Shown: positions 4,303-50,523 of the stretch, in pieces
How the letters are laid out: each line of letters opens with the position of its first letter
Position numbering within the stretch: position 1 is the first letter of the stretch
NCBI GenBank assembly: GCA_964527425.1
Contig: CAZGOA010000003.1
Coordinates: forward strand, 29,941-93,940
Reading direction: 5' to 3'
DNA length: 64,000 nt
Source of the DNA: an uncultured Gammaproteobacteria bacterium
GTDB lineage: Bacteria; Patescibacteriota; Microgenomatia; UBA10105; UBA927
Translations under genes and position numbers: made by a program
The notes under the pieces: generated by a model
What the model saw: the letters and a program-made list of their open reading frames with translations, nothing else
What the model was told of the DNA's origin: nothing
Database searches by the model: none

Positions 4303-4346
4303 ATTAATTCTTCTTAGTCAGGCAAACTCAGATTCGATCAGGAATA

Positions 4347-4391
4347 CTTCCGATCCGGGATCGGTAGCCTCATCCGATCCGGGGTCGGAAG
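4347..4391. repeat. palindromic interspersed repeat, module-2 type (CTTCCGATCCGGGATCGG-TAGCCTC-ATCCGATCCGGGGTCGGAAG)
   Basis: Self-complementary CCGATCCGGGATCGG core, shared with at least 8 other loci in the window. Confidence 0.8.
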
Positions 4392-4458
4392 AAACTAGCC
4401 TATAATATTTGTGTTATTCCTTATTTTTCGTTATACTATCTATCCCTATACACTATCT

Positions 4459-5505
4459 ATGAATGAACAAAAGTCATTTAAACCGGATAATTTAGAATTT
4501 CAGATGTATCTATCTCGATTCAGTAATGATCATCCAGGTGTACTGGAAACATTTTGGCGTGATCCTCTGTTTTTAGATCATGTAACTTCATTACATATTA
4601 ATCCTGAAGCTCTTTCAAAACTCCAGAGACATGAAGTTGCCGCGACATTGATTGCACCACCTAGAATGAGGGCGGCATTTATGCATGGACCTATGCGGGC
4701 AATCCTTAGTCGGGTTGATTATGAAGGATATAGTAAATACTTAACTGACTATGCTCAGAGTACAATTTCAGGACAACAGTCATTCACCCAATCAAGATTC
4801 AATAGTGATTCTTTGAAATTTGCTTTTCAAACGCTAAATCGATTAGTTGACCCCTTGGTGAATAGCTATGGACAGCCAGTCTCAGACCTTCTTAACAACG
4901 ATCCATATCTGAATGCCAGATTTCGACTCTATACAAACCTACAATACCCAGAGGATGTACTGCGGGATAGTTTTCAAACATCTTATACTACCTATCAAAC
5001 AATACTTGAACGCTGTATTACTCATGCAAACGGCAGTCATGAATTTTCTTATCTCCATGCATCTAGTAATAGGGTCCGAGAACTGGCACACATACGACTA
5101 TTAAAAATGACTGATATAGCTCAAATTGCCAAAGGTCTCACCAGAACCAGTAACGGATTTGTAACCCCAGAACTTGTTACTCAAAGACAGCTATATAAGT
5201 GTATAGAGCTAAAAGACGATCATTTCGGACTAACTCATTCAACGGTTCAGGAGCTTAACACTCACTTGCGAAACCATAACCGCAGTATGGGTGATCCTGA
5301 AGAAAACGAAGGGTATATTCCTGAACTAGGCACATCATCGGGTTGTCCATTTGGACATGAAGGAAGTCAGCAACCGAGATATTCAGATAATCCGCTCGAG
5401 GTACAATACCTTCCTGCTCATTTGCGTCAGGACATTGTTGAACCTATAGATATCATACATCAGTGGATTTGCTTACTGGCAGAAGCTTATAACCAACATA
5501 TATGA
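4459..5505 (+). CDS. hypothetical protein, paralog A of a tandem pair (C-terminal TSSGCPFGH motif)
   Basis: Long ORF with no recognisable family. Its stop overlaps the start of the next gene (ATGA). It shares the motif ...TSSGCPFGHEGSQQPRYSD with the downstream paralog. Start set at MNEQKSF; the track ORF begins at 4411. Confidence 0.5.
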   Translation: MNEQKSFKPDNLEFQMYLSRFSNDHPGVLETFWRDPLFLDHVTSLHINPEALSKLQRHEVAATLIAPPRMRAAFMHGPMRAILSRVDYEGYSKYLTDYAQSTISGQQSFTQSRFNSDSLKFAFQTLNRLVDPLVNSYGQPVSDLLNNDPYLNARFRLYTNLQYPEDVLRDSFQTSYTTYQTILERCITHANGSHEFSYLHASSNRVRELAHIRLLKMTDIAQIAKGLTRTSNGFVTPELVTQRQLYKCIELKDDHFGLTHSTVQELNTHLRNHNRSMGDPEENEGYIPELGTSSGCPFGHEGSQQPRYSDNPLEVQYLPAHLRQDIVEPIDIIHQWICLLAEAYNQHI

Positions 5506-6704
5506 GAGAAGTACTAACAAATAATCCAAATACTGACTATATCTCATTATTGATACAAGACGCAAAAGACCGTCCAGACGATTATCCCTGCAATGGAGTA
5601 CAAGATTATACTCACGATCTTCGAACGATAGCGGCGTCTATGCTGGCAGATACAAGACTTGGTATTGAAATTGTTCCATACGGAAACACCATTAGAGTCA
5701 CAGTGCAACATAACTTAGTCGGTGAGATTGAGGATATTCCTGATATCAACACTGTTGATGCACTTATGACTATATTAAAGACCCATTATGCACCGGATCA
5801 TCTAAGAGGAGATTTTCATAAAACTGTAACTAATCGTTTACTCAGACAGACTCATTTACCACAGATTACTCGTACTGATATTACCAGTTTGGAGAGTGAA
5901 GAACATGCTATTGAAATGGACTATCTTCCAGACTACTTAACTCAACCTCATCGCTTACTCAATGCACTGTTTGTTCGAGTTGAGCAAACAGAAAATATAC
6001 CTGAAATTTGGAATCGTATTATCAGCCCAGACATTCTCAAAAAAGAGCCGGTTATCGCATTCAGACTTTATCAGTATGCGTATTATAATTCGTTCGATAC
6101 AATTATTTCAGACGGTGTGATTGGACAGGTTAAAATTACTCGGGCACTGTTATTTAGCATTATTGAACGCCTCGATCGAACCAATCCCATATATTCACCA
6201 GATATTCCTACAGCGCTTCACGCTGCGCAGTATATTCTGCGAAGTAAAAATTTTATGCACATGATGTTTGAATTAACACAGATACCAAATGGACATCTGA
6301 TTCCAGGCATCCAACATCCGCTATTACCGGACAATAGATGGCAATACTTTACCTCTAGTCTCCGTATATCTGATGGGGATATTGCGTTTACCGATCAGTA
6401 CCGTGAAGAATTGGATCGGAATATAAAAACACATAATAATCGTTCAGGTACTCTTCCTGACACTTTACGCAATAAGCCATATACAGTGTTAGAAGCTGCA
6501 ACTACGTCAGGTTGCCCACTCGGTCACGGAGCACCCAGTAAACAAACGTTTTCTGATGACAGAAATAACATCGCTTTTTTCCCAGATAAAGCACTAACAT
6601 CTGTAAACAAACACCCGATTATTAGCCTTAATGATACGTTAATTGACCTGATTGACATGGTAATCACTGATAAAGAACTTCAACAATCATTATTAGCATC
6701 ATAG
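5502..6704 (+). CDS. hypothetical protein, paralog B of a tandem pair (C-terminal TTSGCPLGH motif)
   Basis: 400 aa ORF translationally coupled to the upstream gene. Conserved block EAATTSGCPLGHGAPSKQTFSD. Confidence 0.5.
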   Translation: MREVLTNNPNTDYISLLIQDAKDRPDDYPCNGVQDYTHDLRTIAASMLADTRLGIEIVPYGNTIRVTVQHNLVGEIEDIPDINTVDALMTILKTHYAPDHLRGDFHKTVTNRLLRQTHLPQITRTDITSLESEEHAIEMDYLPDYLTQPHRLLNALFVRVEQTENIPEIWNRIISPDILKKEPVIAFRLYQYAYYNSFDTIISDGVIGQVKITRALLFSIIERLDRTNPIYSPDIPTALHAAQYILRSKNFMHMMFELTQIPNGHLIPGIQHPLLPDNRWQYFTSSLRISDGDIAFTDQYREELDRNIKTHNNRSGTLPDTLRNKPYTVLEAATTSGCPLGHGAPSKQTFSDDRNNIAFFPDKALTSVNKHPIISLNDTLIDLIDMVITDKELQQSLLAS

Positions 6705-7487: not shown

Positions 7488-8426
7488 TTACTTACGGTGA
7501 AACTTCTGATGAATATCTCGAAGTTGGGGGTTGGTGACATGGGTGTAAATTTGGGTAGTTGAAACGTTTTTGTGACCTAACATTTCTTGAATAGCACGTA
7601 AGTCTGCTCCATTGTGAAGTAAATCTGTAGCATAACTGTGTCTGAGTCCATGAGGAGTTATTTTGATGGGTAGTTTTGCCTTTTTTACATACTTTTCTAC
7701 CATTCTCTGAACGCTTCTGGCAGATAGTCTTAAGGATTCACCATCTTTATCATCCGGATCGGGGGTTGGTCCGTTATATCGAATAAATAAGGCCTTAGAA
7801 TCATCTCTTCTGTTTGAAAGATAACGAGTAACCCACTCAACAGCTGAATCTGATAAAAAGACAACTCGTGCCCTTCTTCCTTTTCCTATAACGCCAAATT
7901 CTTTCCGTTCAAAATTGATTTGATCTCTATTCAAACTCACTAATTCTGAAACACGAAGTCCTGTTGAGAACAATAATTCCAGTATCGCTTTATCTCTTAG
8001 TCCTTCTTCTTCTGATAGAGAAGGCATATTCAGCAGTCGATCAACATCACTTCGTTCTAAAAATTTTATACTTCTGCTTTCAGCTTTGGCTAGATCAATT
8101 TTCTCTGGATGGACTGTTTCGACATCCCGTTTCATCATATATTTAAGAAAAGATCTGACAGCTATTAAATGGTAATTTTGGGTAACTCTTTTTAAACTTA
8201 AGCCTTTTTCATCGACATAACGCGATAAAAATAATCGGTATTCACGAATCCGATCTGCTGTGAGATGACTAACCTGTAGTTGTTCGGGAGAGGAGGGGAG
8301 AGTCTGAGCTAAAAATCCTATAAGTCGAGATAAATAATGATGGTAATTACGAACGGTTAGTTGAGAAACATTTCGTTCAATTTCGAGGTATTCTAAAAAC
8401 TGTTTAACTGCTTCTGTTAATGGCAT
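7488..8426 (-). CDS. tyrosine site-specific recombinase, XerC/XerD family
   Basis: C-terminal catalytic box HGLRHSYATDLLHNGADLRAIQEMLGHKNVSTTQIYTHV (R..H..R..Y). Confidence 0.8.
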   Translation of the reverse strand: MPLTEAVKQFLEYLEIERNVSQLTVRNYHHYLSRLIGFLAQTLPSSPEQLQVSHLTADRIREYRLFLSRYVDEKGLSLKRVTQNYHLIAVRSFLKYMMKRDVETVHPEKIDLAKAESRSIKFLERSDVDRLLNMPSLSEEEGLRDKAILELLFSTGLRVSELVSLNRDQINFERKEFGVIGKGRRARVVFLSDSAVEWVTRYLSNRRDDSKALFIRYNGPTPDPDDKDGESLRLSARSVQRMVEKYVKKAKLPIKITPHGLRHSYATDLLHNGADLRAIQEMLGHKNVSTTQIYTHVTNPQLRDIHQKFHRK

Positions 8427-8485: not shown

Positions 8486-9094
8486 TTACTCAATAGTCCA
8501 AATGACAGGACGTTTGCGAGCATATTCAACTTCGTATCGTTTATATTGACTAAATTTAGTGTATGGCCAAATAGATACCTTTTTATCTACATAGTTCCCA
8601 TGAATAAGGAGTGGTTCTTTATGTTCATCATATTGTAAAAAGAGTGCGAGATGAGGACCTGGATACTGTAATTTTAAAGCTCTTTCTAATGCATCATTTC
8701 CTCGTATCTCATTTGGAATAGCCCGAAATTCTTTAATATTAGCCTGAGCAAAAAAGAATATATCTCCTAGCTGTAAGGGTTCATCTACCAATAAAGGACG
8801 TACATAGGGATTGGGTAAAATCATATGAACTGGATCGAGGGTAGGGGGCAGTTTATACGTAAATAATCTCTCTAATAAATAGTGAACTACATACACACAA
8901 TTCACTTCTGTTTGACCTTTTAGATAATATGGAACCTGATCGGGACTTTGGTGATAGTTATACGGCGCTCCCATTATTTCTTGTATGGCGTGATGTTGAG
9001 AAGTTTCGTGATTGAAAAAAGTTGTCTCCTTTAGAATGCTGTTAACTATACTAAATGTATATTTTTCTGACAACCCAAGAACCAGATGACGCAT
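8486..9094 (-). CDS. NlpC/P60-like (C40 papain-fold) hydrolase, no signal peptide
   Basis: Pattern NCVYVVHYLL...LQLGDIFFF...HLALFLQYDEHKEPLLIHGN resembles the Cys...GDL-FF...H-G-Y...H core of NlpC/P60. The track start at 9121 is an artefact of the adjacent repeat (MNVCIRDR encoded by repeat DNA), so the start is moved to MRHLVLG. Confidence 0.4.
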   Translation of the reverse strand: MRHLVLGLSEKYTFSIVNSILKETTFFNHETSQHHAIQEIMGAPYNYHQSPDQVPYYLKGQTEVNCVYVVHYLLERLFTYKLPPTLDPVHMILPNPYVRPLLVDEPLQLGDIFFFAQANIKEFRAIPNEIRGNDALERALKLQYPGPHLALFLQYDEHKEPLLIHGNYVDKKVSIWPYTKFSQYKRYEVEYARKRPVIWTIE

Positions 9095-9097
9095 AGT

Positions 9098-9296
9098 TCG
9101 ATCCCGGATGCAGACATTCATCCGATCCCGGATCGAGGTAAGATCTCCTTAAAGTTAGTTCATCTCGATCCGGGATGCAGACATTCGTCCGATCCCGGAT
9201 CGGAGTAAGATCTCCATAAAGTTAATTCATCTCGATCCGGGATGCAGACATTCGTCCGATCCCGGATCGGTAGCCTCTTCCGATCCCGGATCGGAA
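9098..9296. repeat. tandem array: 3 x ~65 bp units (39 nt hairpin module plus 26 nt near-identical linker) ending in the TAGCCTC plus module-2 palindrome
   Basis: TTCGATCCCGGATGCAGACATTCATCCGATCCCGGATCGAGGTAAGATCTCCTTAAAGTTAGTTCA, followed by TCTCGATCCGGGATGCAGACATTCGTCCGATCCCGGATCGGAGTAAGATCTCCATAAAGTTAATTCA, followed by a third copy, then TAGCCTCTTCCGATCCCGGATCGGAA. Confidence 0.85.
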
Positions 9297-9322
9297 TAAT
9301 CAAGATCTGATACACTAAAGAT

Positions 9323-10639
9323 ATGCCTGCCTATACCAGTAAACTTGTTGATCCTGGCGTGTGTATTGTATTTGCCTATGCTCCTGCTGGATTGGGTCAC
9401 TTACGAGTGACTGATGCGCTGTATCATGGTCTACCTCAGGAATGCGATCCAATGCTTTTGCCTGATACTGCTGTGTCTGTTAAGACTCTCCATAGGTTGA
9501 CAAGTAGTAATCCTTTTGCAAAGCGTTTTTTTGAATGGTCTCAGCAAGGAGTACCAGAAACGATTATTACGAGAATATATCGTTTCATGCTTCATCAGGA
9601 TGCCCGTTTCATGCAGAAACGATTATTAGAGTTATTAAAACAACGAATTCAATTACCTCATACATTGGTTATTGTAGCCACTCATTATGGTATTGCTCAC
9701 CAGGTATCTGTAATAAAAAAAGATCTAGAACGTTTAGGAAATGTTCGAGTGTTGCTCGTTGTTCAAGTAACAGATGATAGTCCTCAGAAACTCTGGTACG
9801 TACCACATGCCGATTTACTCTGTGTGCCAAGTGAATTTACATATACATCACTACAGACATATGGTAGATTGGAACATTTAGGCAAAAGTCGAATTGTTAT
9901 TCTTCCATATCCTGTGAGTCCACGCCTATTACAACCACGTTCTCAGCAAGATATGGACTTAGCGATGCATCAAACTGATCCGTTAAGTCAGGTGCTTATT
10001 CATACGGTAATCCCAATATCAGGTGCTGCAGTCGGAATACCATATTTGAGAAAATTGATGCATAAACTTCATACATTAGAACCCAGAATGCGATTTCATA
10101 TTATTGTAAAACGCTCAATATTTACCCTATCTGCAATCCGATCCTGGAAACGAAAAGGATATATGTATGTATATGAATCTCGTTCTGATAGAGAGATTAT
10201 TGATCTATATGAACGTGTATATGAGCAGGAAAAAATTGTATTGGAGATAACTAAACCATCTGAACAGTCATTTAAAGCACTTATTCCGCCCAACAGGCAA
10301 GGGGGGAGTATTTTACTTTTTGCACCTCCTGTTGGAAGACAGGAGTATGATAATGTAAGTTTTTTACAGCGTAATGGGTTAATCCCGTCTGGTGAGGAAT
10401 ATAGACAATTGTGCGACGTCTTGAATTTAGAACAAAATAGACCTATTCCATTACCCATATCCCATTGGCGCGGGTTTAGACTTTCTGATGATCCAGTCAT
10501 TGCAGCTAAATGGATAAGTCGTGCATTAACATTTAGGATTTTTCAGTCTATGATTTCTGGGAAAGAACATAAACGCTCAGATGAAGTGAGTCCTGAGGGT
10601 GTTGAGGAATTCTGGAAGCAAGTGGTGTCGTTGTTATAA
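9323..10639 (+). CDS. GT-B glycosyltransferase, MGDG-synthase/UgtP-like (GT28-related)
   Basis: N-terminal APAGLGHLRVTDAL resembles the GGGH..AA.AL motif of MGDG/diglucosyl-DAG synthases. LWYVPHADLLCVPSE resembles the GT28 C-terminal region. Confidence 0.45.
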   Translation: MPAYTSKLVDPGVCIVFAYAPAGLGHLRVTDALYHGLPQECDPMLLPDTAVSVKTLHRLTSSNPFAKRFFEWSQQGVPETIITRIYRFMLHQDARFMQKRLLELLKQRIQLPHTLVIVATHYGIAHQVSVIKKDLERLGNVRVLLVVQVTDDSPQKLWYVPHADLLCVPSEFTYTSLQTYGRLEHLGKSRIVILPYPVSPRLLQPRSQQDMDLAMHQTDPLSQVLIHTVIPISGAAVGIPYLRKLMHKLHTLEPRMRFHIIVKRSIFTLSAIRSWKRKGYMYVYESRSDREIIDLYERVYEQEKIVLEITKPSEQSFKALIPPNRQGGSILLFAPPVGRQEYDNVSFLQRNGLIPSGEEYRQLCDVLNLEQNRPIPLPISHWRGFRLSDDPVIAAKWISRALTFRIFQSMISGKEHKRSDEVSPEGVEEFWKQVVSLL

Positions 10640-11812: not shown

Positions 11813-12832
11813 ACTCTTATTTCATCGTTTAGCTTGTCAGAATAATCTAATTCTGTATTTTTCACGCAAGAGCAGAGGTAACTTGAATCTGTTTAAAGCT
11901 AATACTGACGGTTTATGGCAGATATGATGATTTGAGTTCAAACAGAGCATAAAGCAGAAATACAAAAAGTACTGGTAATTAGAAATAAATAGACAAATAC
12001 CATACAAATAGGTACTGGAAGAAAGAGTTAAAATGAAACCTCTCTTGAGGCTAAATATCAATGTAGCGTCGCAAAAGTATTATTGTCCGACGTATATAGC
12101 TAGCTCACCTTGCCCTCAAAAATGAACACTTTTTGACCTTTATGAAAGTATATGATCAAACATAGATATTCTTGTTATTATGATTCTTCCCAAAGAACCT
12201 CATATACACTCTTTGCCTCCATATCATCTAATAGTAATCACGTAGAAAACACCATGCGTTCAAAAGCTAGTCAATAAGGCGGTGAGTGCTTGCGTCTAAT
12301 CTCAAGTGAGTGACAGCAATGTACAGGTAACTTACCTTTTAATTGCGGGGCAAAAGATTTTTGAGTAGGCAATTTTTGAGACACTTACAGATCGCTGGAA
12401 ACTGCTACTTTAGTCTGCATAAGCAATTCATATTTAGAGCGTTGCAACAGTCTAAATGACACTTTTTGAGGCTGTTTTACAACAAATTGGAACAATACGC
12501 TCTTTCGGGTTTTCTTAGATAGTTGAAATTTCATTGTTCTATCAATCTATTTGACACTTTTTGAGGCTATGATATATAAAAATGAATACATTCTGTTTCT
12601 TTTGAGGGGACATTTAGCAGTAAGGGTGTCGGGTTGATAAATTCTCCCTCACTACGCTCGAGAATAGATTAAATTGTGTAAATGATGAACTCAATACACT
12701 CAAATCAGGTCCTATAACATCGTGAAAACTTTATTAAATTTTCGTGAAAACTTATCCACATTAATATTATAGGCTTATAGTATAACTGTATCATACTATA
12801 TCATCTACTCCTCTCTCCTACTTCTTTTGAAC

Positions 12833-20880: not shown

Positions 20881-20923
20881 TTCGATCCGGGATGCAGACA
20901 TCCGTTGAGATCCCGGATCGGAA
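20881..20923. repeat. solo hairpin module of the palindromic repeat family (TTCGATCCGGGATGCAGACATCCGTTGAGATCCCGGATCGG)
   Basis: Sequence identity to the repeat consensus. Lies immediately upstream of the MFS gene. Confidence 0.8.
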
Positions 20924-21574: not shown

Positions 21575-21652
21575 TTCGATCCGGGATGCAGAAATACTTC
21601 CGATCCCGGATCGGGTGAGGCTACCGAAATTCTTCCGATCCGGGATCGGAAT
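21575..21652. repeat. composite repeat: hairpin module plus linker plus module-2 palindrome
   Basis: TTCGATCCGGGATGCAGAAATACTTCCGATCCCGGATCGG-GTGAGGCTACCGAAATT-CTTCCGATCCGGGATCGGAA. Overlaps the last ~11 codons of the minus-strand ORF 21621..22325. Confidence 0.8.
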
Positions 21653-22325
21653 ATTCTGGATGATTTATTCGATATTGTATTGCAGCTTGTTTCCCGATAT
21701 CTGTAAAAATTGATCTATATGCTTGTCTATGTTTTATGCGCTCAGGACGCGATATAGTGCTTGCTTGAGAGACAAGTGAGTCTTTTGTTGAGTCTAAAAT
21801 TCCATATAAATATTCTTTGACTCCATCTGTCGCATTATAAAAAGCAGGACTTCTATGACCTATTTTTTTATTCATAAATGGAATATACACAACATTATTG
21901 AGATTAAAGTGTCTTGCTAATTCATCAACTTTTTCTCTATTAAAACCTTGTGATTCAAATTCATCGATGACTACTATTGATTCACTCTTTGATACGTTTG
22001 TCGACCGAAGAAAATGTTCAATATCTCGAGGATTTAATTCCCCATCACGTTCTAGACTCATAAACTTCACTTGCGGCAATTTTCTTCCCAGTGAATCGGA
22101 TAAACTCTTTAGCATCCAATACACTGGACGTGCTGACCGGTCAAGAAAATAGAGTGTGTCGGGATTATGAGAGATGATCTTTTCATACAAACGAAGCAGC
22201 TGTTCCTGATACTGTTCTTTTTGCTTGGAAACAGATTCAAAAAAAACAGATAAATCTAGTTCTAACACTTCTGCACTTACTGTCTGATATTCTCCAGATC
22301 TATCCATATTTTTTATAAAAACCAT
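21621..22325 (-). CDS. hypothetical protein (weak phosphoribosyltransferase-like motif)
   Basis: SIVVIDEFESQG resembles a PRTase PRPP-binding loop. The last ~10 residues (...SDPGSEEFR) and the stop codon are encoded by repeat DNA. Confidence 0.35.
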   Translation of the reverse strand: MVFIKNMDRSGEYQTVSAEVLELDLSVFFESVSKQKEQYQEQLLRLYEKIISHNPDTLYFLDRSARPVYWMLKSLSDSLGRKLPQVKFMSLERDGELNPRDIEHFLRSTNVSKSESIVVIDEFESQGFNREKVDELARHFNLNNVVYIPFMNKKIGHRSPAFYNATDGVKEYLYGILDSTKDSLVSQASTISRPERIKHRQAYRSIFTDIGKQAAIQYRINHPEYSDPGSEEFR

Positions 22326-23935: not shown

Positions 23936-24331
23936 TTAGCTGTGCGAAAGTTTATCCTGAAAATCAGAATCATATTTGCTATAATCCATTGTCAGTTCTT
24001 CACCCACATTGATATCTCTTGCTGCTACGTCTATTCCCTCGTCATCTTCTGGAACCGACTGATCAATACATGTAGGCTGATCTGAGTGATTTTGAAATCG
24101 TGTGTCATCAAAACACAAGATATACATTCCAGTTTTTTTATTGCGATAGCAGTACTTTAAACATTGTTCTTTTGCAGGGTCAGAGAGCTTTTGAAGTTGT
24201 TCTTCTGAAAATTTTAAATCAAATCCCGGTTGAAATTTCCATACTGGAGTTCCCTTTGGAATAAACTGGTCAGCAAATAATCCTATGCCGTGAATTTTAC
24301 TTGGACCAATAGAAGTTTTTACTAAAATCAT
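23936..24331 (-). CDS. SET-domain protein (putative lysine methyltransferase)
   Basis: 131 aa with GIGLFA...G..V...FQNHSDQPTC... SET-like blocks. Starts 16 nt downstream of tRNA-Leu. Confidence 0.6.
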   Translation of the reverse strand: MILVKTSIGPSKIHGIGLFADQFIPKGTPVWKFQPGFDLKFSEEQLQKLSDPAKEQCLKYCYRNKKTGMYILCFDDTRFQNHSDQPTCIDQSVPEDDEGIDVAARDINVGEELTMDYSKYDSDFQDKLSHS

Positions 24332-24431: not shown

Positions 24432-24482
24432 ATGAGGTTCATTCTATCATAAAACAATAATTCCAATGAATTATATACTTCA

Positions 24483-24518
24483 ATCGGGATGGAGACATCC
24501 GTTCCGATCCCGGATCGG
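24483..24518. repeat. degenerate solo hairpin module (ATCGGGATGGAGACATCCGTTCCGATCCCGGATCGG)
   Basis: Matches the repeat consensus. Lies between tRNA-Leu and dnaB. Confidence 0.7.
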
Positions 24519-34527: not shown

Positions 34528-34974
34528 GTGGAGTTACATTTCATGGGAACCTATCTTTTCCCTTCATCAAACATGTATATCGCCAATTCTTTAATAAAGG
34601 GTGCAGGAAGAGGTGTGTTTGCCTCAAGACATATTGAAAAAGATGAAATGATTGAACGATGTCCAGTCATTATCCTGCAACAGCATGATATTCAGGTAAT
34701 AGAAAAGACAGAACTTATTAATTATTACTTTCAATGGGAGTCGAAAGCAAACTATTCTAAGGGTGCCATCTGTTTGGGTTTTGGATCAATCTATAATCAC
34801 TCATATGCTCCCAATGCGACATATAAAAAAATACTAAAAGAACGCTGTATTGAGTTTGTGGCCATATCACATATTCGAAAAGATGAAGAGATAACGGTGA
34901 ATTATAATAACGGAAATCCGGACGATAAGCGTGTTTTATGGATTAAATCTATCCCTCCACCTGCAGGATACTGA
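34528..34974 (+). CDS. SET-domain protein (second copy)
   Basis: GAGRGVFASRHIEKDEMI...NHSYAPNATY are SET signature blocks. The true start may be an internal ATG. Confidence 0.55.
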   Translation: MELHFMGTYLFPSSNMYIANSLIKGAGRGVFASRHIEKDEMIERCPVIILQQHDIQVIEKTELINYYFQWESKANYSKGAICLGFGSIYNHSYAPNATYKKILKERCIEFVAISHIRKDEEITVNYNNGNPDDKRVLWIKSIPPPAGY

Positions 34975-37155: not shown

Positions 37156-37848
37156 ATGAATACAAATGTTGCAATATTAGAGTTCCGAGCCGGCCCAGGT
37201 GGCGAGGAAGCAAAAATTTGGGCTAGTGATTTGCTTCGAATGTATACCCGATATGCCAATATCGTTGGCTGGAAAGTGAGTAGTGTGTCTGAAACTGCAA
37301 TTCGTATTAAGGGTGAAGATGTGTTTACAAAACTTCAATATGAAGCAGGTACACATAGAGTTCAACGCATTCCTACTACTGAACGACAGGGTCGTATTCA
37401 TACGTCTACTGCAACTGTTGCAGTACTCCCAGAAATATTGGAATCAGAAGTTGCTGTTCGAAATGAAGACCTTGAATGGGACTTTCATCGAGCGGGCGGC
37501 CACGGTGGACAAAATGTAAATAAGGTAAGCTCTGCTGTACGTTTAACGCATAAACCCAGTGGAATTGTTGTAACTTGTAGTAATGAGAGAGATCAATTTC
37601 AAAATAGACAAGTTGCCTTATCTATGCTTCGTGCCAAACTGTGGGAAGCTGAGGAAATCAAAAAAGCGGCAACGATGGCTGATGCCAGGTCTGTTATAGG
37701 TCGAGGTATGCGAGCTGAGAAAATACGTACCTATAACTACCCTCAAAACCGGGTAACTGATCACAGAATTAACAAATCATGGCATAATCTGGAAGATATT
37801 GTTGAAGGAAAGCTGCAAAAAGTCACTGAGGCTATGGTGGGTATCTGA
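37156..37848 (+). CDS. prfA: class-I peptide chain release factor, RF1-type, lacking N-terminal domain 1
   Basis: GGQ motif ([12 protein letters not shown]) and PxT-type codon-recognition motif ([14 protein letters not shown]). Only 230 aa, and it starts at the position equivalent to about residue 110 of RF1. Confidence 0.7.
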
Positions 37849-39086: not shown

Positions 39087-39232
39087 ATATCTCCTTTCGA
39101 CAGTTAGTCTTGAAGATTCTGTATCAGAATTATGTATCTCGTTTCTTATTTTTACAAGGGTTATCTGAAAATTTGCTGAAATGTATTGTATTGTAAGTTT
39201 ATTAAAGCACGGTGTGTAAATCAACCTGATCT

Positions 39233-39428
39233 CTCGATGCAGAAATACTTCAGACCCTGGATCGGTTTAGGCTTCATCTCGATCCGGGATGCAGACATTC
39301 GTCCGATCCCGGATCGGTATAGGCTTCTCGGTGTTTGAATGCATAATTCGATCCCGGATGCAGACGTCCGTCCGATCCGGGATCGGTATAGGCTGTATAG
39401 GCTCGACTCTTCCGATCCGGGATCGGTA
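39233..39428. repeat. array of 3 hairpin modules (one degenerate) with GTATAGGCT-type linkers, ending in a module-2 palindrome
   Basis: CTCGATGCAGAAATACTTCAGACCCTGGATCGG...TCTCGATCCGGGATGCAGACATTCGTCCGATCCCGGATCGG...TTCGATCCCGGATGCAGACGTCCGTCCGATCCGGGATCGG...CTTCCGATCCGGGATCGGTAG. Confidence 0.85.
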
Positions 39429-46954: not shown

Positions 46955-47021
46955 TTAGGAGTAAATCAGTTTCTGTATCATTTTTACTGTAGAAAAAGGA
47001 GGTTTAGAAGCAACAAAAACA

Positions 47022-47195
47022 ATAAGAGCGTGTGGTCCGTCTTCTTAGACGGAATACGAGGAAAGGGCCCCTATGGGGAATCGAACCCAAGATAAACTCT
47101 TGGAGAATCAGCGGAAACCCTTCGGTTGTAACGTACAATCGTGACAAATGACTAAAATCTTTCTGGTAACAGATTGGACAAAGGTTTTTTGAATA
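47022..47195 (+). ncRNA. structured 5' leader of glmS; candidate glmS ribozyme/riboswitch
   Basis: Five perfect or near-perfect hairpins (CCGUCU-ucuu-AGACGG, CCCC-uau-GGGG, GGG-aaucgaa-CCC, CCAAGA-uaaac-UCUUGG, GUUGUA-acg-UACAAU). ACGAGGAAAGGG plus the downstream CCCUUCGG resembles the glmS-ribozyme GACGAGGAGGAGG...CCUCC pseudoknot. GGACAAAGG resembles the conserved UGAACAAAG. Confidence 0.3.
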
Positions 47196-47322
47196 CGTTT
47201 GCTTCTTTATACTACTCATTACTACGATTTATCTTTAACGTATCTTGGAAGAATAATTGCTCAATTACTGCGTCCTAACATGAGGAATGTAATTATTCTG
47301 CAAGATACTCGACTTTACCTAT

Positions 47323-49101
47323 ATGTGTGGAATATTTGGATATGTTGGTCCTAAAACAAATGCTGCAAATGTAATCCTGAAAGGGTTGAAAACGCTTGAG
47401 TATAGAGGGTATGACTCCTGGGGTGTTGCTGTGGTTCCAAAAGACCCGAAAAAGCAGCATATTATGCTCAAAAAAAAGTCAGGGAAAATTGGTGATGCAA
47501 CGGTAACAGATTTGCCTGCTTCATCTTTTGGATTTGGCCATACTCGATGGGCTACGCATGGGGGTGTCACAGATGTAAATGCTCATCCTCATGTGGATTG
47601 TACGAAAAAAATCGCCATTATTCATAATGGAATCGTTGAAAATTATGAACAGCTAAAAGAAAAATTATCAAAAAAAGGTCATACATTTTCTTCTGAAACT
47701 GATACAGAAGTGATTGTCCACTTGATTGAGGAATATGCAAAAAAAACAATGTTTAGTAAAGCGGTACAAAAAGCCTTTAATGAATTGGTAGGATTAAATG
47801 CAATTATTGCTATTAATACTATTGACCAGGTTTTTGTTGCTGCGCGTAATGGATCCCCCTTGGTGATTGGATTTGGTGAGGATGAAAATTTTTTGGCGAG
47901 TGATGCTGCTGCAATTATTCCGTACACAAAGCAGGTTCACTACTTAGAAGATGGTGAAATGGCTCTGGTAGGAAAAAGTGGAGTTTCTATTTTTGAAGCC
48001 AAAACTGGCAAAAATATTCATCCGAAAAAACAACTCTTAACATGGACTGTTGCACAAGCAGAAAAAGGGAGATATCCATTTTTCATGTTAAAAGAAATTC
48101 ATGAACAACCTGGGATATTGGTTGATATAGCAACTAATAGTGTAAATCACGCAGAACATTTAGCCAATGCTATTAAACATTCATTTGGTGGATATTTAAT
48201 TGGCTGTGGGACTGCTGCTTTTGCATGTATTGCTGGCACATATTTATTTTCCAAAATTGCTAAGCGACATATGAACTGGGCTATAGGGAGTGAATTCCCC
48301 TATTCTCAAGATTTTTTGACGGGAAAAAGCTTAGTGATTGCTTTGTCTCAGTCAGGCGAAACCATGGACACCATTGAGGCTGTAAAGCAGGCTAAACAGA
48401 AAGGGGCAACCTTGGTTGCGATGGTAAATGTTTTGGGATCAACGCTGTACCGTATGGCGGATCACAAAATATTGCTTTCTGCTGGTCCAGAAAAAGGTGT
48501 TGCCTCTACAAAAGCGTTTACTGCCAAACTTGGTCATTTGTTATTACTTGCTACTGCGCTTGATAATAATGTCTCCTACGGAAAAACGTTAGTACTACAT
48601 GCGGCAAAAGCAACTCAAAAGATATTAAGAAAGGAGAATCGAGCAAAAATTGAGGAACTAGCTAACAAGATTATGAAGACTCCTCATATATATGTTGTAG
48701 GAAGGGGTCTTTCCTACCCTGCTTCTCTTGAAACAGCTCTGAAGATAAAAGAAATTTCTTATATTCATGCTGAAGGGTTAGCGGGTGGTGAGTTAAAACA
48801 TGGGGCTTTAGCGTTAGTTGAGAAAGGAACACCCTGTATTGTGATTGCACCACCTGATGAAACATATCAAGATACGCTGGCTGGGGCAATGGAAATGAAA
48901 GCGAGAGGTGGATATATTATTGGTCTTTCTAATAAACCACATGATGTGTTTGATTATTACTTACCTGTTCCGTATGTGCAGGAGGCAACTATTATTCCCA
49001 ATATTGTGACAGCACAATTATTGGCATATTACTTAACCATTCATAAAGGATTTGACCCTGATAAACCAAGGAATTTGGCTAAGAGTGTGACGGTAAAGTG
49101 A
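47323..49101 (+). CDS. glmS: glutamine--fructose-6-phosphate aminotransferase
   Basis: N-terminal MCGIFGYVG (Ntn Cys) followed by two SIS domains. Confidence 0.9.
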   Translation: MCGIFGYVGPKTNAANVILKGLKTLEYRGYDSWGVAVVPKDPKKQHIMLKKKSGKIGDATVTDLPASSFGFGHTRWATHGGVTDVNAHPHVDCTKKIAIIHNGIVENYEQLKEKLSKKGHTFSSETDTEVIVHLIEEYAKKTMFSKAVQKAFNELVGLNAIIAINTIDQVFVAARNGSPLVIGFGEDENFLASDAAAIIPYTKQVHYLEDGEMALVGKSGVSIFEAKTGKNIHPKKQLLTWTVAQAEKGRYPFFMLKEIHEQPGILVDIATNSVNHAEHLANAIKHSFGGYLIGCGTAAFACIAGTYLFSKIAKRHMNWAIGSEFPYSQDFLTGKSLVIALSQSGETMDTIEAVKQAKQKGATLVAMVNVLGSTLYRMADHKILLSAGPEKGVASTKAFTAKLGHLLLLATALDNNVSYGKTLVLHAAKATQKILRKENRAKIEELANKIMKTPHIYVVGRGLSYPASLETALKIKEISYIHAEGLAGGELKHGALALVEKGTPCIVIAPPDETYQDTLAGAMEMKARGGYIIGLSNKPHDVFDYYLPVPYVQEATIIPNIVTAQLLAYYLTIHKGFDPDKPRNLAKSVTVK

Positions 49102-49347
49102 GGATCTGTGCAGACAGTTTATCTTGATTAACCCGGTTTTTTTGTGTATTACGATCCGGGATGCAGACATTCGTCCGATCCCGGATCGGTGGAAGGATTA
49201 TCTGATAAACCAAGGAATTTGGCTAAAAGTGTGACGGTAAAGTGAAGATGTATAGGTACGGTTTATCTTGATTGTTCCGGTTTTTGATTATCACGATCCG
49301 GGATGCAGACATTCGTTGAGATTCAGGATCGGTAGCCTCAGCCTCTT
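49060..49347 (+). repeat. 2 x 144 bp tandem direct duplication of the glmS 3' end plus downstream hairpin module
   Basis: GATAAACCAAGGAATTTGGCTAA(G/A)AGTGTGACGGTAAAGTGA...TTTATCTTGATT...CGATCCGGGATGCAGACATTCG occurs twice, at 49060 and 49204. The second copy retains an out-of-context ...DKPRNLAKSVTVK stop remnant. Confidence 0.7.
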
Positions 49348-49368
49348 TCTTCCGATCCCGGATCGGAA
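49295..49368. repeat. hairpin module (degenerate right arm) plus TAGCCTC linker plus module-2 palindrome
   Basis: CGATCCGGGATGCAGACATTCGTTGAGATTCAGGATCGG-TAGCCTCAGCCTCTTT-CTTCCGATCCCGGATCGGAA. Confidence 0.8.
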
Positions 49369-49731: not shown

Positions 49732-50523
49732 TTATTGCGTTGATTCAACAGCACTTGATGCAGACTTTCGGATACGGGCGATTGATTGAATAACGCTTGC
49801 TAGATCTTCTCTGGCCTTTTTTACTTTTTCCTGGGTGGCTTTGAGATCTGTTTCCAGTAGAGTTCTTACGCGTTCTACTGAATCTTTTAATTTATCTTCT
49901 GTGGTTACTCCGATAATATATTCTTTTCCTGCTTGTGTTGTAACGGCTGTTTTTGCAGCAGAGACTGAAACCTGAGCTGCTGATAAGGCTGTTTGAACTT
50001 GTGAAACATTTACGCCTTGAGCTGAGCGCTCAGAGAGAGTTTCTGAAATTTTCGTTATAACTTCTTCCATCTTGGCAACATGATTTGACATTGCTGTAGT
50101 TCTATTTGTGTTTACCGTACTAAACCGGTTATCAAGGTTTTCTACTATTTCTTTTTTACGTTCATCTTTTATTGTGTCCAGTCGATTTTGGAAATCTTCA
50201 CGGGCTTTGGTATATCGCTCTTTTGCCTGTTCTCTTTTTTCTTTTATTTGTTCATTAAGAAGTTCTTTTTTGGCTTTGTATTCTTCTTGAGTAGTTTTGC
50301 GAATTTGTTTTATAGCTTCTTTATTTTCTTTTCTCTCATTATTTTCTTTTCTATCTTTATTTTCATTTCTTTCTTTATTTTCTTTTCTATCTTCATCTAG
50401 ATCGTCTGATGACTTTTCTACTTCGAGGACTGCTTCTGTTTCATCTCCTAATACTGCAGGAGGCACTTGTGGCGTGCGGATTCCTAGACCGATTAATACA
50501 AGACCTAATAATTGTTCGAGCAT
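49732..50523 (-). CDS. hypothetical coiled-coil protein with (R/D)KENKE hexapeptide repeats
   Basis: DRKENKERNENKDRKENNERKENKE. The DNA shows 18-nt periodic repeats at ~50290-50400. Confidence 0.45.
   Translation of the reverse strand: MLEQLLGLVLIGLGIRTPQVPPAVLGDETEAVLEVEKSSDDLDEDRKENKERNENKDRKENNERKENKEAIKQIRKTTQEEYKAKKELLNEQIKEKREQAKERYTKAREDFQNRLDTIKDERKKEIVENLDNRFSTVNTNRTTAMSNHVAKMEEVITKISETLSERSAQGVNVSQVQTALSAAQVSVSAAKTAVTTQAGKEYIIGVTTEDKLKDSVERVRTLLETDLKATQEKVKKAREDLASVIQSIARIRKSASSAVESTQ

Follow-up and report, generated by a model that had tools for sequence, protein, structure and literature searches.

The array at positions 9098-9296 is one cluster of a dispersed, strand-polarised family of REP/BIME-like repeats, a point absent from the first-pass annotation of this DNA. 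The window (the whole 64-kb stretch analysed, which lies in a gyrB-gyrA-dnaB region) holds 11 full-length copies of a 39-nt hairpin module, M1, and 15 copies of a 15-19-nt palindrome, P (CCGATCCSGGATCGG), both dispersed, at seven intergenic loci, against a chance expectation of zero. The locus is probably a cluster of lineage-specific intergenic repeats of the REP/BIME kind, built as nested-palindrome hairpins, in a Gottesmanbacteria-like CPR genome.

Structure of the array

Tandem Repeats Finder recovers the array at 9098-9270, with a period of 67, 2.6 copies, 94% matches, and a score of 304. In the window, the 39-nt module has six matches at three or fewer mismatches and the 15-nt palindrome has 15, with 0.00 expected for each in 100 shuffles, far beyond chance; the array reported earlier is real. 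By sequence reading, it is a mosaic cluster with the order M1-linker-M1-linker-M1-TAGCCTC-P, composed as follows.

9098-9137, + strand: M1a, the first 39-40-nt hairpin module (TCGATCCCGGATGCAGACATTCATCCGATCCCGGATCGAG), from sequence reading and family alignment
9138-9164, + strand: linker 1 (GTAAGATCTCCTTAAAGTTAGTTCATC), AT-rich and restricted to the array at 9098-9296, from sequence reading
9165-9204, + strand: M1b, the consensus form of the hairpin module (stem 11 bp, inner stem 3 bp, loop 15 nt), from folding
9205-9231, + strand: linker 2, unlike linker 1 at 2 of 27 positions, from sequence reading
9232-9270, + strand: M1c, with the same sequence as M1b and the copy at 39279-39317, from the module search
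9270-9277, + strand: connector GTAGCCTC, from sequence reading
9278-9296, no strand assigned: M2 cap, a 19-nt palindrome (TTCCGATCCCGGATCGGAA) with an 8-bp stem and a 3-nt loop, from folding

The unit had been given as 65 bp (39 + 26) but measures 67 bp, made up of 40 bp of M1 and 27 bp of linker. Three copies of M1 are present, as described; only two units are full, however, the third being M1 without a linker, followed by the cap. The TAGCCTC and module-2 cap that had been said to end the array are seen at 9270-9296. Unit 1 departs from unit 2 at 6 of 67 positions, M1b and M1c do not differ at all, and M1a has three mismatches to the family consensus, one of them a C.C mismatch at the stem centre. 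The units are mutually 91-100% identical, with no variable segments, and the near-identity claimed for the linkers is confirmed. The earlier reading of the array as tandem amplification of a unit also stands, the duplicated unit being the 67-bp combination of M1 and linker.

Both outer edges of the array are reproduced to the base in independent assemblies of short reads, drawn from many SRA runs. Runs in which the organism occurs include SRR27710303, SRR35759036, SRR7051042, SRR29876766 and SRR31740696-8. The copy number of three and the junction between units 2 and 3 rest on the assembly of the window itself, because the short-read contigs all break within the array. Since every Logan short-read contig of this organism ends at these repeats, the family directly causes MAGs of the lineage to fragment.

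The likeness of the array to a CRISPR or TIGR array is a visual one, confined to the regular repeat/"spacer" periodicity of hairpin-forming repeats. Three direct copies of a 39-nt module at a 67-nt period do fall within the CRISPR pattern of at least three regularly spaced direct repeats of 23-55 nt, and TIGR-Tas systems occur in CPR genomes, some of them with tandem stem-loop units (PMC12045711). The "spacers," however, are not unique: the 27-nt linkers are identical at 25 of 27 positions, and the third interval is the 8-nt connector. The array has no leader, and its module is also scattered singly at other loci. No cas or defence family was found among window ORFs of at least 120 aa (Pfam) or in ten unannotated ORFs (PADLOC), and the window encodes no Nop/Tas, HNH, or RuvC protein, including the adjacent Nop-domain Tas gene by which TIGR-Tas is defined. 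A TIGR unit contains a pair of variable spacers, 8-12 nt long and bounded by box C/D motifs, and corresponds to a 36-nt tigRNA or stem-loop (PMC12045711), whereas the units here are 67 nt long and hold no box C/D-flanked variable spacers. A degenerate or minimal RNA-guided array is exceedingly improbable, and the idea can in practice be regarded as refuted, in line with the first-pass judgement that the locus is not CRISPR. Array finders can be misled by CRISPR-like periodicity in CPR genomes, and this locus makes a clear negative case.

Repeat family and strand polarity across the window

Beyond the array, family copies occupy six further intergenic loci.

4334-4390, + strand: truncated M1 followed by P, TAGCCTC, and P'; the neighbours are folD and an unannotated ORF
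20882-20923, + strand: M1 variant (...CGTTGAGATCCCGGATCGGAA), flanked by divergently transcribed genes
21576-21651, + strand: M1, GT, GAGGCTA (the inverted connector), and P, between convergent genes
24479-24518, + strand: degenerate M1, antisense to its two neighbours, tRNA-Leu and dnaB (3' end)
39231-39426, + strand: cluster of three M1 (one degenerate) with TATAGGCT connectors and a P cap, between htrA and ctp, antisense to both
49151-49368, + strand: two M1 and a P cap, downstream of glmS

With the array included, the family's elements total 832 bp (1.3% of the window) and have a GC content of 47-59%, as compared with 38% for the genome, while the DNA into which they are inserted is AT-rich and intergenic; the copy at 21576-21651 overlaps the last codons of ORF 21621-22325. 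A second array had been described at 39233-39428 as comparable. It belongs to the same family and has three M1 and a P cap, but because its spacing is irregular and its linkers unrelated, it is a cluster rather than a regular tandem array. The glmS-proximal copies lie within a tandem duplication of ~142 bp (about 49054-49190 and 49196-49333, 88% identical) that repeats the final 45 coding nucleotides of glmS together with the 3' flank of the gene and M1; tandem duplications that carry flanking DNA end at M1 at two loci.

Several short motifs are shared among the loci. The connector motif GTAGCCTC is also found 3' of the palindrome at 4363-4371 and 49331-49339, and its inverse, GAGGCTA, lies at 21617-21623 and also in the relative L094. 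GTAG occurs within CGGTAGCCTC at three of the seven loci, on the 3' side of M1 and 6 nt before P; at 39.3 kb, GTATAGGCT replaces this GTAG-bearing sequence. P is a perfect palindrome of 15-19 bp with a free central base (C or G). Inverted 11-nt sequences (CGATCCGGGAT and ATCCCGGATCG) bound both M1 and the composite element described below.

Folded as DNA, M1 forms an 11-bp stem (dG -13.7/-15.7 kcal/mol, z about -4), and M2 folds into an 8-bp stem. Across nine distinct copies, 91% of M1 pair cells are paired, as compared with 16-56% when the partners are slid, and compensatory changes occur at two stem pairs (G-C to C-G; C-G to A-U), the A-U variant being present in the related species as well. 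The values for stem pairing and covariation were equalled in 13-14 of 500 shuffles. RNA folding of the array region is strong on both strands (z = -5.2 and -6.0), and G.T mismatches outnumber A.C mismatches by 7 to 4, without a clear strand preference for a selected hairpin.

All 11 M1 copies, at all seven loci, are oriented on the + strand, while the flanking genes run either way; the orientation of P is undefined because P is almost symmetric. The + strand is also the G-rich strand in every sub-window after correction for gene orientation. A single orientation at seven loci has a two-sided chance probability of about 0.016, the loci being partly non-independent. Orientation-corrected GC skew, checked with oriC in mind, does not change sign in the window, which contains neither a dnaA gene nor a canonical parS. 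The ORF-free region at 11813-12832, which has the sole perfect DnaA box, was considered as an oriC and rejected (23 boxes, as compared with 22.4 expected). The motif GAGGCTA is common to this region and the repeat family, at a significance too low to link them.

The inverted 11-nt termini of M1 and of the composite element, the AT-rich intergenic setting, and the variable presence of copies among relatives are features expected of classical MITEs, that is, of non-autonomous deletion derivatives of DDE-type insertion sequences transferred as double-stranded DNA via terminal inverted repeats and later duplicated locally. However, the "terminal repeats" here make up nearly the entire element, and no target-site duplication or target motif is consistent across the flanks of the seven loci (the nearest empty site, in the relative L110, is too diverged). 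The window contains no insertion sequence or transposase with matching ends, and uniform strand orientation is unexpected for cut-and-paste DDE elements. An origin as MITEs is thus unlikely.

Distribution among relatives and neighbouring genes

Variation in copy number between strains, which the first-pass annotation had proposed as a check, is borne out by strain L118 (97% identical in the protein encoded by gene 9323-10639), in which the right end of the array has one extra 24-nt unit of TAGCYTC and palindrome (TAGCTTC followed by ATCCGACCCCAGATCGG) at the M2 cap. This comparison covers the right end only and is the sole informative copy-number comparison among public assemblies. In a related species at 84% identity, the family occupies the same two loci in a different arrangement, and no copy occupies the site in relatives at 68% and 56%. 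The spacer upstream of gene 9323-10639 is 83 nt long and repeat-free in L110 (68%), and L112 has no repeat, its Xer gene lying 97 nt from that gene. The copy at 24479-24518 is likewise missing from 56 nt downstream of dnaB in L115 (DnaB 96% identical).

Wider searches did not extend this distribution. The family module returned no matches in 185,579 GTDB species representatives, in JGI metagenomes, in IMG/VR, or in plasmid or phage collections, and no family copies were found in 1.37 Mb around gyrA in 80 relatives or within 10 kb upstream of the window. A looser pattern of P and connector gave a single match, in a high-GC contig, that is due to chance and was discarded. Because the family is absent from the collections searched, better-studied hosts can offer no information on it. 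No Rfam family matches the array, even at E<=10, with only sub-threshold noise returned, and no description of REP-, BIME-, or MITE-like families in Patescibacteria was found in the literature searched.

The array had been placed between an NlpC/P60-like gene and a glycosyltransferase gene. The first label, for ORF 8486-9121, has no support from Pfam (E<=10), NCBIfam, or PDB sequences; the second, for gene 9323-10639, is weakly supported (MGDG_synth, E=0.018; PF06925 in some homologues). Two promoter-like features border the array.

9045-9073, - strand: promoter-like TTGTCA-17-TATAGT for the leftward 211-aa ORF, conserved in L110
9311-9316, + strand: TACACT hexamer, 6 nt ahead of the start codon (ATG) of gene 9323-10639

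Should the promoter-like sequence at 9045-9073 be active, the start annotated at 9121, which falls within the repeat, would probably be incorrect. The TACACT hexamer is kept in all relatives, whether the array is present or absent, and could serve as the -10 element of a promoter whose transcript has a short leader or none. A candidate -35/-10 pair upstream (CTGACA-19 nt-CATAGT) could read into the array.

The first-pass annotation had also drawn attention to a Xer-type recombinase gene about 670 bp away. Proximity of a tyrosine recombinase, together with the fact that integron attC sites are likewise imperfect palindromes used in single-stranded form, might suggest that the repeats are its attC or dif-like sites. 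The encoded protein is instead an ordinary XerC/XerD-like recombinase (245/239 bits), its integron integrase score of 118 bits falling below the cutoff of 265, and the gene keeps its neighbourhood in relatives without repeats, so that it is not a dedicated partner of the array. The repeats flank housekeeping genes in both orientations and no cassettes, and the centre of P is 1-3 nt. Known core sites of tyrosine recombinases have a crossover region of 6-8 bp. The proposed link to Xer does not survive these comparisons, and a role for the repeats as its recombination sites is very unlikely.

If the array has a role at the RNA level, it would supply gene 9323-10639 with a structured 5' leader, an attenuator, or a stabiliser, or else be a set of small RNAs or processing sites. 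Strong RNA folding on both strands, some covariation in stem pairs, and the possible promoter reading into the array are compatible with such a role, as is the precedent of E. coli, in which ~80% of REPs give rise to transcripts and RNAs from REP325 associate with the nucleoid (PMC4550694). However, the modules at two of the seven loci are antisense to both neighbours, and the mismatch counts favour neither strand clearly. No terminator-like site (a GC-rich hairpin with a T/U tract) occurs on either strand in 8800-9500, the array hairpins being followed by AATAATC without a U tract. There is no Rfam match, and in relatives the orthologous gene lacks the leader. We consider an RNA-level role quite improbable.

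Alternatively, P could represent double-stranded sites for a dimeric protein (a global regulator, a nucleoid or partition protein, or one involved in GATC methylation or sequestration), with the array selected as a high-avidity platform. A perfect palindrome with a free central base would fit a dimer; GATC sites are dense, with 13 in the 199-bp array as compared with 3.6 per kb elsewhere; two intergenic positions are shared with the related species; and the setting is the gyrB-gyrA-dnaB region. However, the non-palindromic 15-nt loop and the connectors are as conserved as P, which indicates copies related by descent rather than convergent sites. The compensatory changes maintain intra-strand pairing, the duplications include unique flanking DNA, and the same genes and promoter-like motifs occur in the 68% and 56% relatives, which lack any such site. 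No candidate binding protein was found. Selection for protein-binding sites therefore appears an improbable explanation of the array.

Growth, spread, and likeness to known repeat systems

In the REP/BIME-like reading, the family is built from the 11-nt palindrome GATCCSGGATC, usually extended to the 15-19-nt P, from M1, which consists of two inverted copies of the 11-nt block around the conserved 15-nt loop, and from short connectors, GTAGCCTC or its inverse. The basic composite element is M1-GTAGCCTC-P, of ~65 nt. At 9098-9296, it has grown by tandem duplication of the 67-bp unit of M1 and linker, and in the sister strain also by duplication of a 24-bp unit of connector and P. Replication slippage or unequal exchange between 39-nt identical direct repeats, presumably favoured by hairpin formation, is the most likely route of expansion. 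The glmS-proximal cluster, in which M1 closes a 142-bp duplication of unique flank, has the same pattern as the array. Once inserted, clusters seem to stay at fixed intergenic sites across species while their internal arrangement changes fast. Occupation of the same two sites in the related species would also fit a conserved function, which counts against this reading.

The means of spread is more tentative. It is possible that the elements moved through a single-stranded hairpin intermediate, acted on in trans by an HUH/Y1 enzyme of the RAYT or IS200/IS605 type encoded outside the window; uniform strand polarity and hairpin anatomy form the sole basis for this proposal. Neither the 64-kb window nor the 10 kb upstream contains a RAYT, Y1, or other transposase to serve the mobilisation step, a point against the REP/BIME-like reading. 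An unannotated ORF pair at 4411-6704, which adjoins the copy at 4334-4390, was considered as a RAYT-like enzyme and set aside, having no Y1_Tnp or other match.

By analogy with known repeats, the elements could act through cruciform extrusion, through binding of nucleoid proteins or gyrase, or as a structured leader for the downstream gene. A more far-reaching proposal, which we think doubtful, is that this strand-polarised, GATC-dense hairpin system is actively maintained in the genome of an ultra-small CPR symbiont, either as a domesticated REPIN-RAYT-like system or as chromosome-structuring or DNA-uptake signals read on the single-stranded lagging-strand template; clusters would then keep their intergenic positions from species to species, with continual reshuffling of unit number. 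Such a system, if real, would be the first described in Patescibacteria. Strand polarity, if genome-wide, would provide a handle on replication-coupled single-stranded DNA transactions in an uncultured lineage.

Patescibacteria genomes are thought to be streamlined and repeat-poor. A repeat family persisting across species in a ~1-Mb episymbiont adds, modestly but genuinely, to knowledge of genome dynamics in these organisms, and the units of 67 and 24 bp lend themselves to strain typing as VNTR markers.

Among known systems, palindromic elements derived from IS200/IS605 share with this family subterminal hairpins and a uniform orientation relative to the G-rich strand, comparable to insertions on the lagging-strand template (PMC3333891). 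They produce no target duplication, and the flanks here show no consistent one. They differ in that no conserved 4-5-nt target or cleavage motif precedes the copies here on the 5' side, the elements are far shorter, and the window contains no TnpA or TnpB. The REPIN-RAYT systems of Pseudomonas and Enterobacteria offer a further parallel: M1 has the REPIN architecture, in which a short repeat and its inverted copy enclose a spacer and fold into a single long hairpin (PMC3116915; RAREFAN preprint), and the family is lineage-specific, mostly vertical at fixed sites, and missing in slightly more distant relatives (PMC3116915). Unlike those systems, the window has no RAYT gene, and none is flanked by repeats.

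The resemblance to E. coli REP and BIME repeats is broader, with some clear differences. There is no sequence similarity to E. coli REP, the palindromic block is 11-19 nt and nearly perfect, as compared with 30-40 nt, and GTAG is present but away from the 5' foot of the hairpin. Successive modules are co-oriented (M1 all on the + strand) rather than alternating as in BIMEs, and the host is a CPR bacterium with a genome of ~1 Mb. REP and BIME elements usually exceed 100 copies per genome. In E. coli, BIME-2 elements form tandem clusters whose copy number varies among strains while copies within a locus are well conserved (PMC3333891), and REP325 consists of six 77-bp units with five identical spacers between them (PMC4550694). 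The family described here is likewise extragenic and dispersed, combines short imperfect palindromes that form stem-loops (11 bp in M1, 8 bp in M2) with conserved linkers in a mosaic, and includes tandem copies (67-bp and 24-bp units) with near-identical "spacers" in strain-variable number, as L118 illustrates. Judged from its sequence organisation, the closest analogue of the array is an E. coli cluster of the REP/BIME-2 type, such as REP325.

Organization of the array

Tandem Repeats Finder identified a single strong array in the window, at 9098-9270, with a period of 67, 2.6 copies, 94% matches and a score of 304. Base reading resolved this region and its right-hand cap into the parts listed below, where M1 is a 39-nt hairpin module and M2 a copy of P, a 15-19-nt palindrome.

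Parts of the array at 9098-9296, by base reading
9098-9137, plus strand, M1a
9138-9164, linker 1 (27 nt)
9165-9204, plus strand, M1b
9205-9231, linker 2 (27 nt)
9232-9270, plus strand, M1c
9270-9277, connector GTAGCCTC
9278-9296, M2, the 19-nt palindrome TTCCGATCCCGGATCGGAA

The tandem amplification proposed in the first-pass annotation holds, and its coordinates for the array are exact, but the measured period is 67 rather than 65; its three units survive as three copies of M1, only two of which belong to full 67-bp units, the third being M1 alone. Six of 67 positions differ between units 1 and 2. Independent short-read contigs, drawn from many SRA runs, terminate in sequence that agrees base for base with each edge of the array; all of them end within it, and the internal unit number therefore derives from the window's own assembly alone.

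The two linkers, or "spacers," are identical at 25 of 27 positions and no Cas family was found among the window ORFs; CRISPR was rejected on these grounds, as the first-pass annotation had anticipated. TIGR arrays are found in CPR bacteria; this reading was also rejected, as the window has no Nop-domain Tas gene and the array neither a 36-nt unit nor variable dual spacers. Rfam at gathering thresholds recovered only two tRNAs and a glmS ribozyme, leaving the array unmatched, and scanning it with permissive settings returned only sub-threshold noise; a known RNA family was rejected given this absence. An intrinsic terminator was rejected in that no terminator-like site was found and the hairpins are not followed by a T-tract. 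The implied connection to the Xer-type recombinase gene (7488-8426) was not borne out: the gene scores as a generic XerC/XerD, far under the integron-integrase threshold, and occupies the same position in relatives lacking the repeats. No transposases of any kind were found in the window or 10 kb upstream.

The left neighbour of the array (8486-9121, minus strand, 211 aa) had been labelled NlpC/P60-like; no such signal was detected. Its annotated start (MNVCIRDRT...) is probably wrong, with the real start later, because it lies inside the repeat and upstream of both a conserved promoter-like TTGTCA-17-TATAGT (9073-9045, minus) and an AAGGAG; no canonical start codon occurs at the usual distance after this AAGGAG.

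A dispersed hairpin family of one polarity

The earlier account is incomplete, as it did not recognize the array as one cluster of a dispersed family. The window contains 15 copies of P (CCGATCCSGGATCGG, 15 nt) at ≤2 mismatches and 6 of M1 (39 nt) at ≤3 mismatches, each with an expectation of 0.00 across 100 shuffles. A profile built from the copies detected 11 full-length M1 copies in the window, at seven loci, and none on its minus strand.

Family loci in the window
4334-4390, locus 1
9098-9296, locus 2 (the array)
20882-20923, locus 3
21576-21651, locus 4
24479-24518, locus 5
39231-39426, locus 6
49151-49368, locus 7

These loci are intergenic or clip ORF ends, have a GC content of 47-59% (vs. 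38% for the genome), and together take up 832 bp (1.3%) of the window. Flanking genes include co-directional, convergent and divergent pairs, and at the 24.5 kb and 39.3 kb loci the modules run antisense to the genes on either side; the uniform plus orientation of M1 is therefore independent of transcription. Replication-type GC skew of the plus strand is positive in every sub-window with plus- and minus-strand genes separated, and is +0.04 in intergenic DNA; all copies thus share one polarity on the G-rich strand of an apparent single replichore. The two-sided chance probability of seven loci in one orientation is ~0.016, which is suggestive, not conclusive.

The elementary block of the family is the 11-nt palindrome GATCCSGGATC, two inverted copies of which flank a conserved 15-nt loop in M1. 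As single-stranded DNA, M1 is predicted to form an 11-bp stem and a 3-bp inner stem (computed dG −13.7/−15.7 kcal/mol, one value per strand; z ~−4), and M2 a stem of 8 bp closed by a 3-nt loop. Among nine distinct M1 copies, pairing is kept in 91% of pair cells, vs. 16-56% with partners slid 1-3 columns. Compensatory double changes are seen at two pairs: the central pair is G-C to C-G in the copy at 39348, and the inner pair C-G to A-U in the GCAGAAATACTTC subfamily, a variant also present in a related species. The observed values were reached in only 13-14 shuffles out of 500. These data provide modest evidence that intra-strand pairing of M1 matters; G.T and A.C mismatches (7 vs. 4) do not single out the relevant strand.

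At three loci P is followed by the connector GGTAGCCTC; the reverse complement of this connector, GAGGCTA, lies 5′ of P at 21617 and in one relative (contig L094), and TATAGGCT variants fill the connector position in the 39.3 kb cluster. With M1, P and connectors all recurring, the clusters are mosaics assembled from a small number of short parts. The copy at 39279 is identical to M1b and M1c, and all three have the same 6 nt (TTCATC) on the 5′ side, which indicates that clusters have recently been copied from, or converted by, one another.

Several other features were observed in the window. Two adjacent overlapping ORFs (4411-5505 and 5502-6704; 364 and 400 aa), with a copy of the repeat 21 nt upstream, have a common C-terminal motif, T(S/T)SGCP(F/L)GH, and no Pfam, NCBIfam or PADLOC match; the pair is missing at that position in the 56% relative. 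An ORF at 37156-37848 (230 aa), immediately downstream of a ribosomal protein L31 ORF, is release-factor-1-like and matches only prfA model positions 113-346, and so lacks the N-terminal ~105 residues. An 18-bp tandem repeat (50318-50393; 4.2 copies, 87% matches) lies inside an unannotated ORF (49732-50523) with a weak LmuB-like PADLOC match (E=6e-4), and two small SET-domain ORFs (23936-24331, 34528-34974) occur within these 64 kb of a CPR genome.

Genomic context and distribution among relatives

The window is ordinary chromosome, containing gyrA, folD, dnaB, ssb, glyA, hisS, glmS and a glmS ribozyme. Its GyrA is ≤76% identical to those of species representatives, with top matches in Candidatus Gottesmanbacteria/Microgenomates MAGs with ~1-Mb chromosomes. 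The ribozyme (47016-47201, upstream of glmS; 54.8 bits, gathering score 37) is an ordinary feature that confirms the correct strand and annotation.

In a sister strain (L118-L121, contigs from four SRA runs), the protein encoded by gene 9323-10639 shows 97% identity and the right flank of the array is unchanged; the right end carries one added 24-nt unit (...M1-TAGCCTC-TTCCGATCCCGGATCGG-TAGCTTC-ATCCGACCCCAGATCGGAA). This is direct copy-number variation at the array locus, as the first-pass annotation had proposed. A related species (84% for the same product; SRR31740696-8) has the family at the array site in another arrangement (GAGGCTA-CCGATCCGGGGTCGGAA), and again downstream of glmS in the same orientation with different organization. 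The repeat is absent from the orthologous spacer (83 nt), which is spanned in the 68% relative, and from the corresponding site in the 56% relative, in which the Xer gene lies 97 nt from the orthologue of gene 9323-10639; the copy after dnaB is missing in a relative with 96% identical DnaB. Among 80 relatives at greater distance, 1.37 Mb of sequence contained no family copies; nor did GTDB representatives, IMG/VR, plasmids or phages, and the one match in JGI metagenomes was judged chance. This distribution marks the family as young and lineage-specific, kept at shared sites between close species with fast rearrangement within each site.

Comparison with relatives also revealed a 1,020-bp region between convergent genes (11813-12832) with no ORF >74 aa, matched by a same-size gap in the corresponding position of four relatives; DNA identities to the window (93.7, 73.6, 70.1 and 66.1%) are about equal to those of the coding genes on either side. 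Direct repeats (CA.TCTA..TGACACTTTTTGAGGCT) spaced by 95 nt occur in this region, as do two TCGTGAAAACTT boxes at a distance of 22 nt and the sole perfect DnaA-box 9-mer of the window (12752-12760). The region has no Rfam match even at E≤1, and may be a large ncRNA or a replication/partition locus. A related MAG (CAYSEV010000018.1) contains four copies in 13 kb of a different AT-rich palindromic repeat, GTTCTGATGTTTTAAAACATCAGAAC; each related CPR lineage may carry its own small repeat family. The 84% relative (SRR31740698, contig L117, 3145-6195) has, between tmk and an HD-domain gene, a 1,016-aa ORF without Pfam match and a PhoU-like gene, both absent from the window.

Origin of the array and comparison with known repeats

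M1-terminated tandem duplications including unique flanking DNA occur at two clusters, with a 67-bp unit in the array and a ~142-bp unit downstream of glmS (49054-49333, 88% identity), the latter containing the last 45 nt of coding sequence (PDKPRNLAKSVTVK*), 3′ flank and one M1. Replication slippage and unequal exchange between close direct repeats are established for bacteria in general. Growth of the array by either process, between closely spaced hairpin-forming direct repeats, would fit, since these duplications and the gain or loss of a 24-bp unit between strains match the expected pattern. The array is probably a cluster of REP/BIME-like dispersed hairpin repeats that has grown through local duplication. 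That the family keeps a single polarity on the G-rich strand brings to mind the IS200/IS605 type of single-strand transposition, which takes place on the lagging-strand template; a single-strand, HUH-type mobilization route for the family is possible, if less likely than not.

The family is of use for marking strains and accounts for breaks in assemblies; such an element is apparently undescribed for Patescibacteria in the searchable literature, and involves no new principle. Any function could be proposed by analogy only. The closest analogue is enterobacterial REP/BIME: BIME-2 elements form tandem copies with short linkers, well conserved within a locus and varying in number between strains (PMC3333891), and REP325 comprises six 77-bp units, each of two palindromes and a constant linker, split by five identical spacers (PMC4550694). 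M1, an inverted doublet folding as one hairpin, also resembles a REPIN. However, the modules show no alternation of orientation, the GTAG that occurs is out of place, and no RAYT was seen in the window. Given these differences, and copies counted within 64 kb only, we use the label "REP/BIME-like" and describe the family as a new lineage-specific member of the small dispersed palindromic repeats, rather than of the E. coli families.
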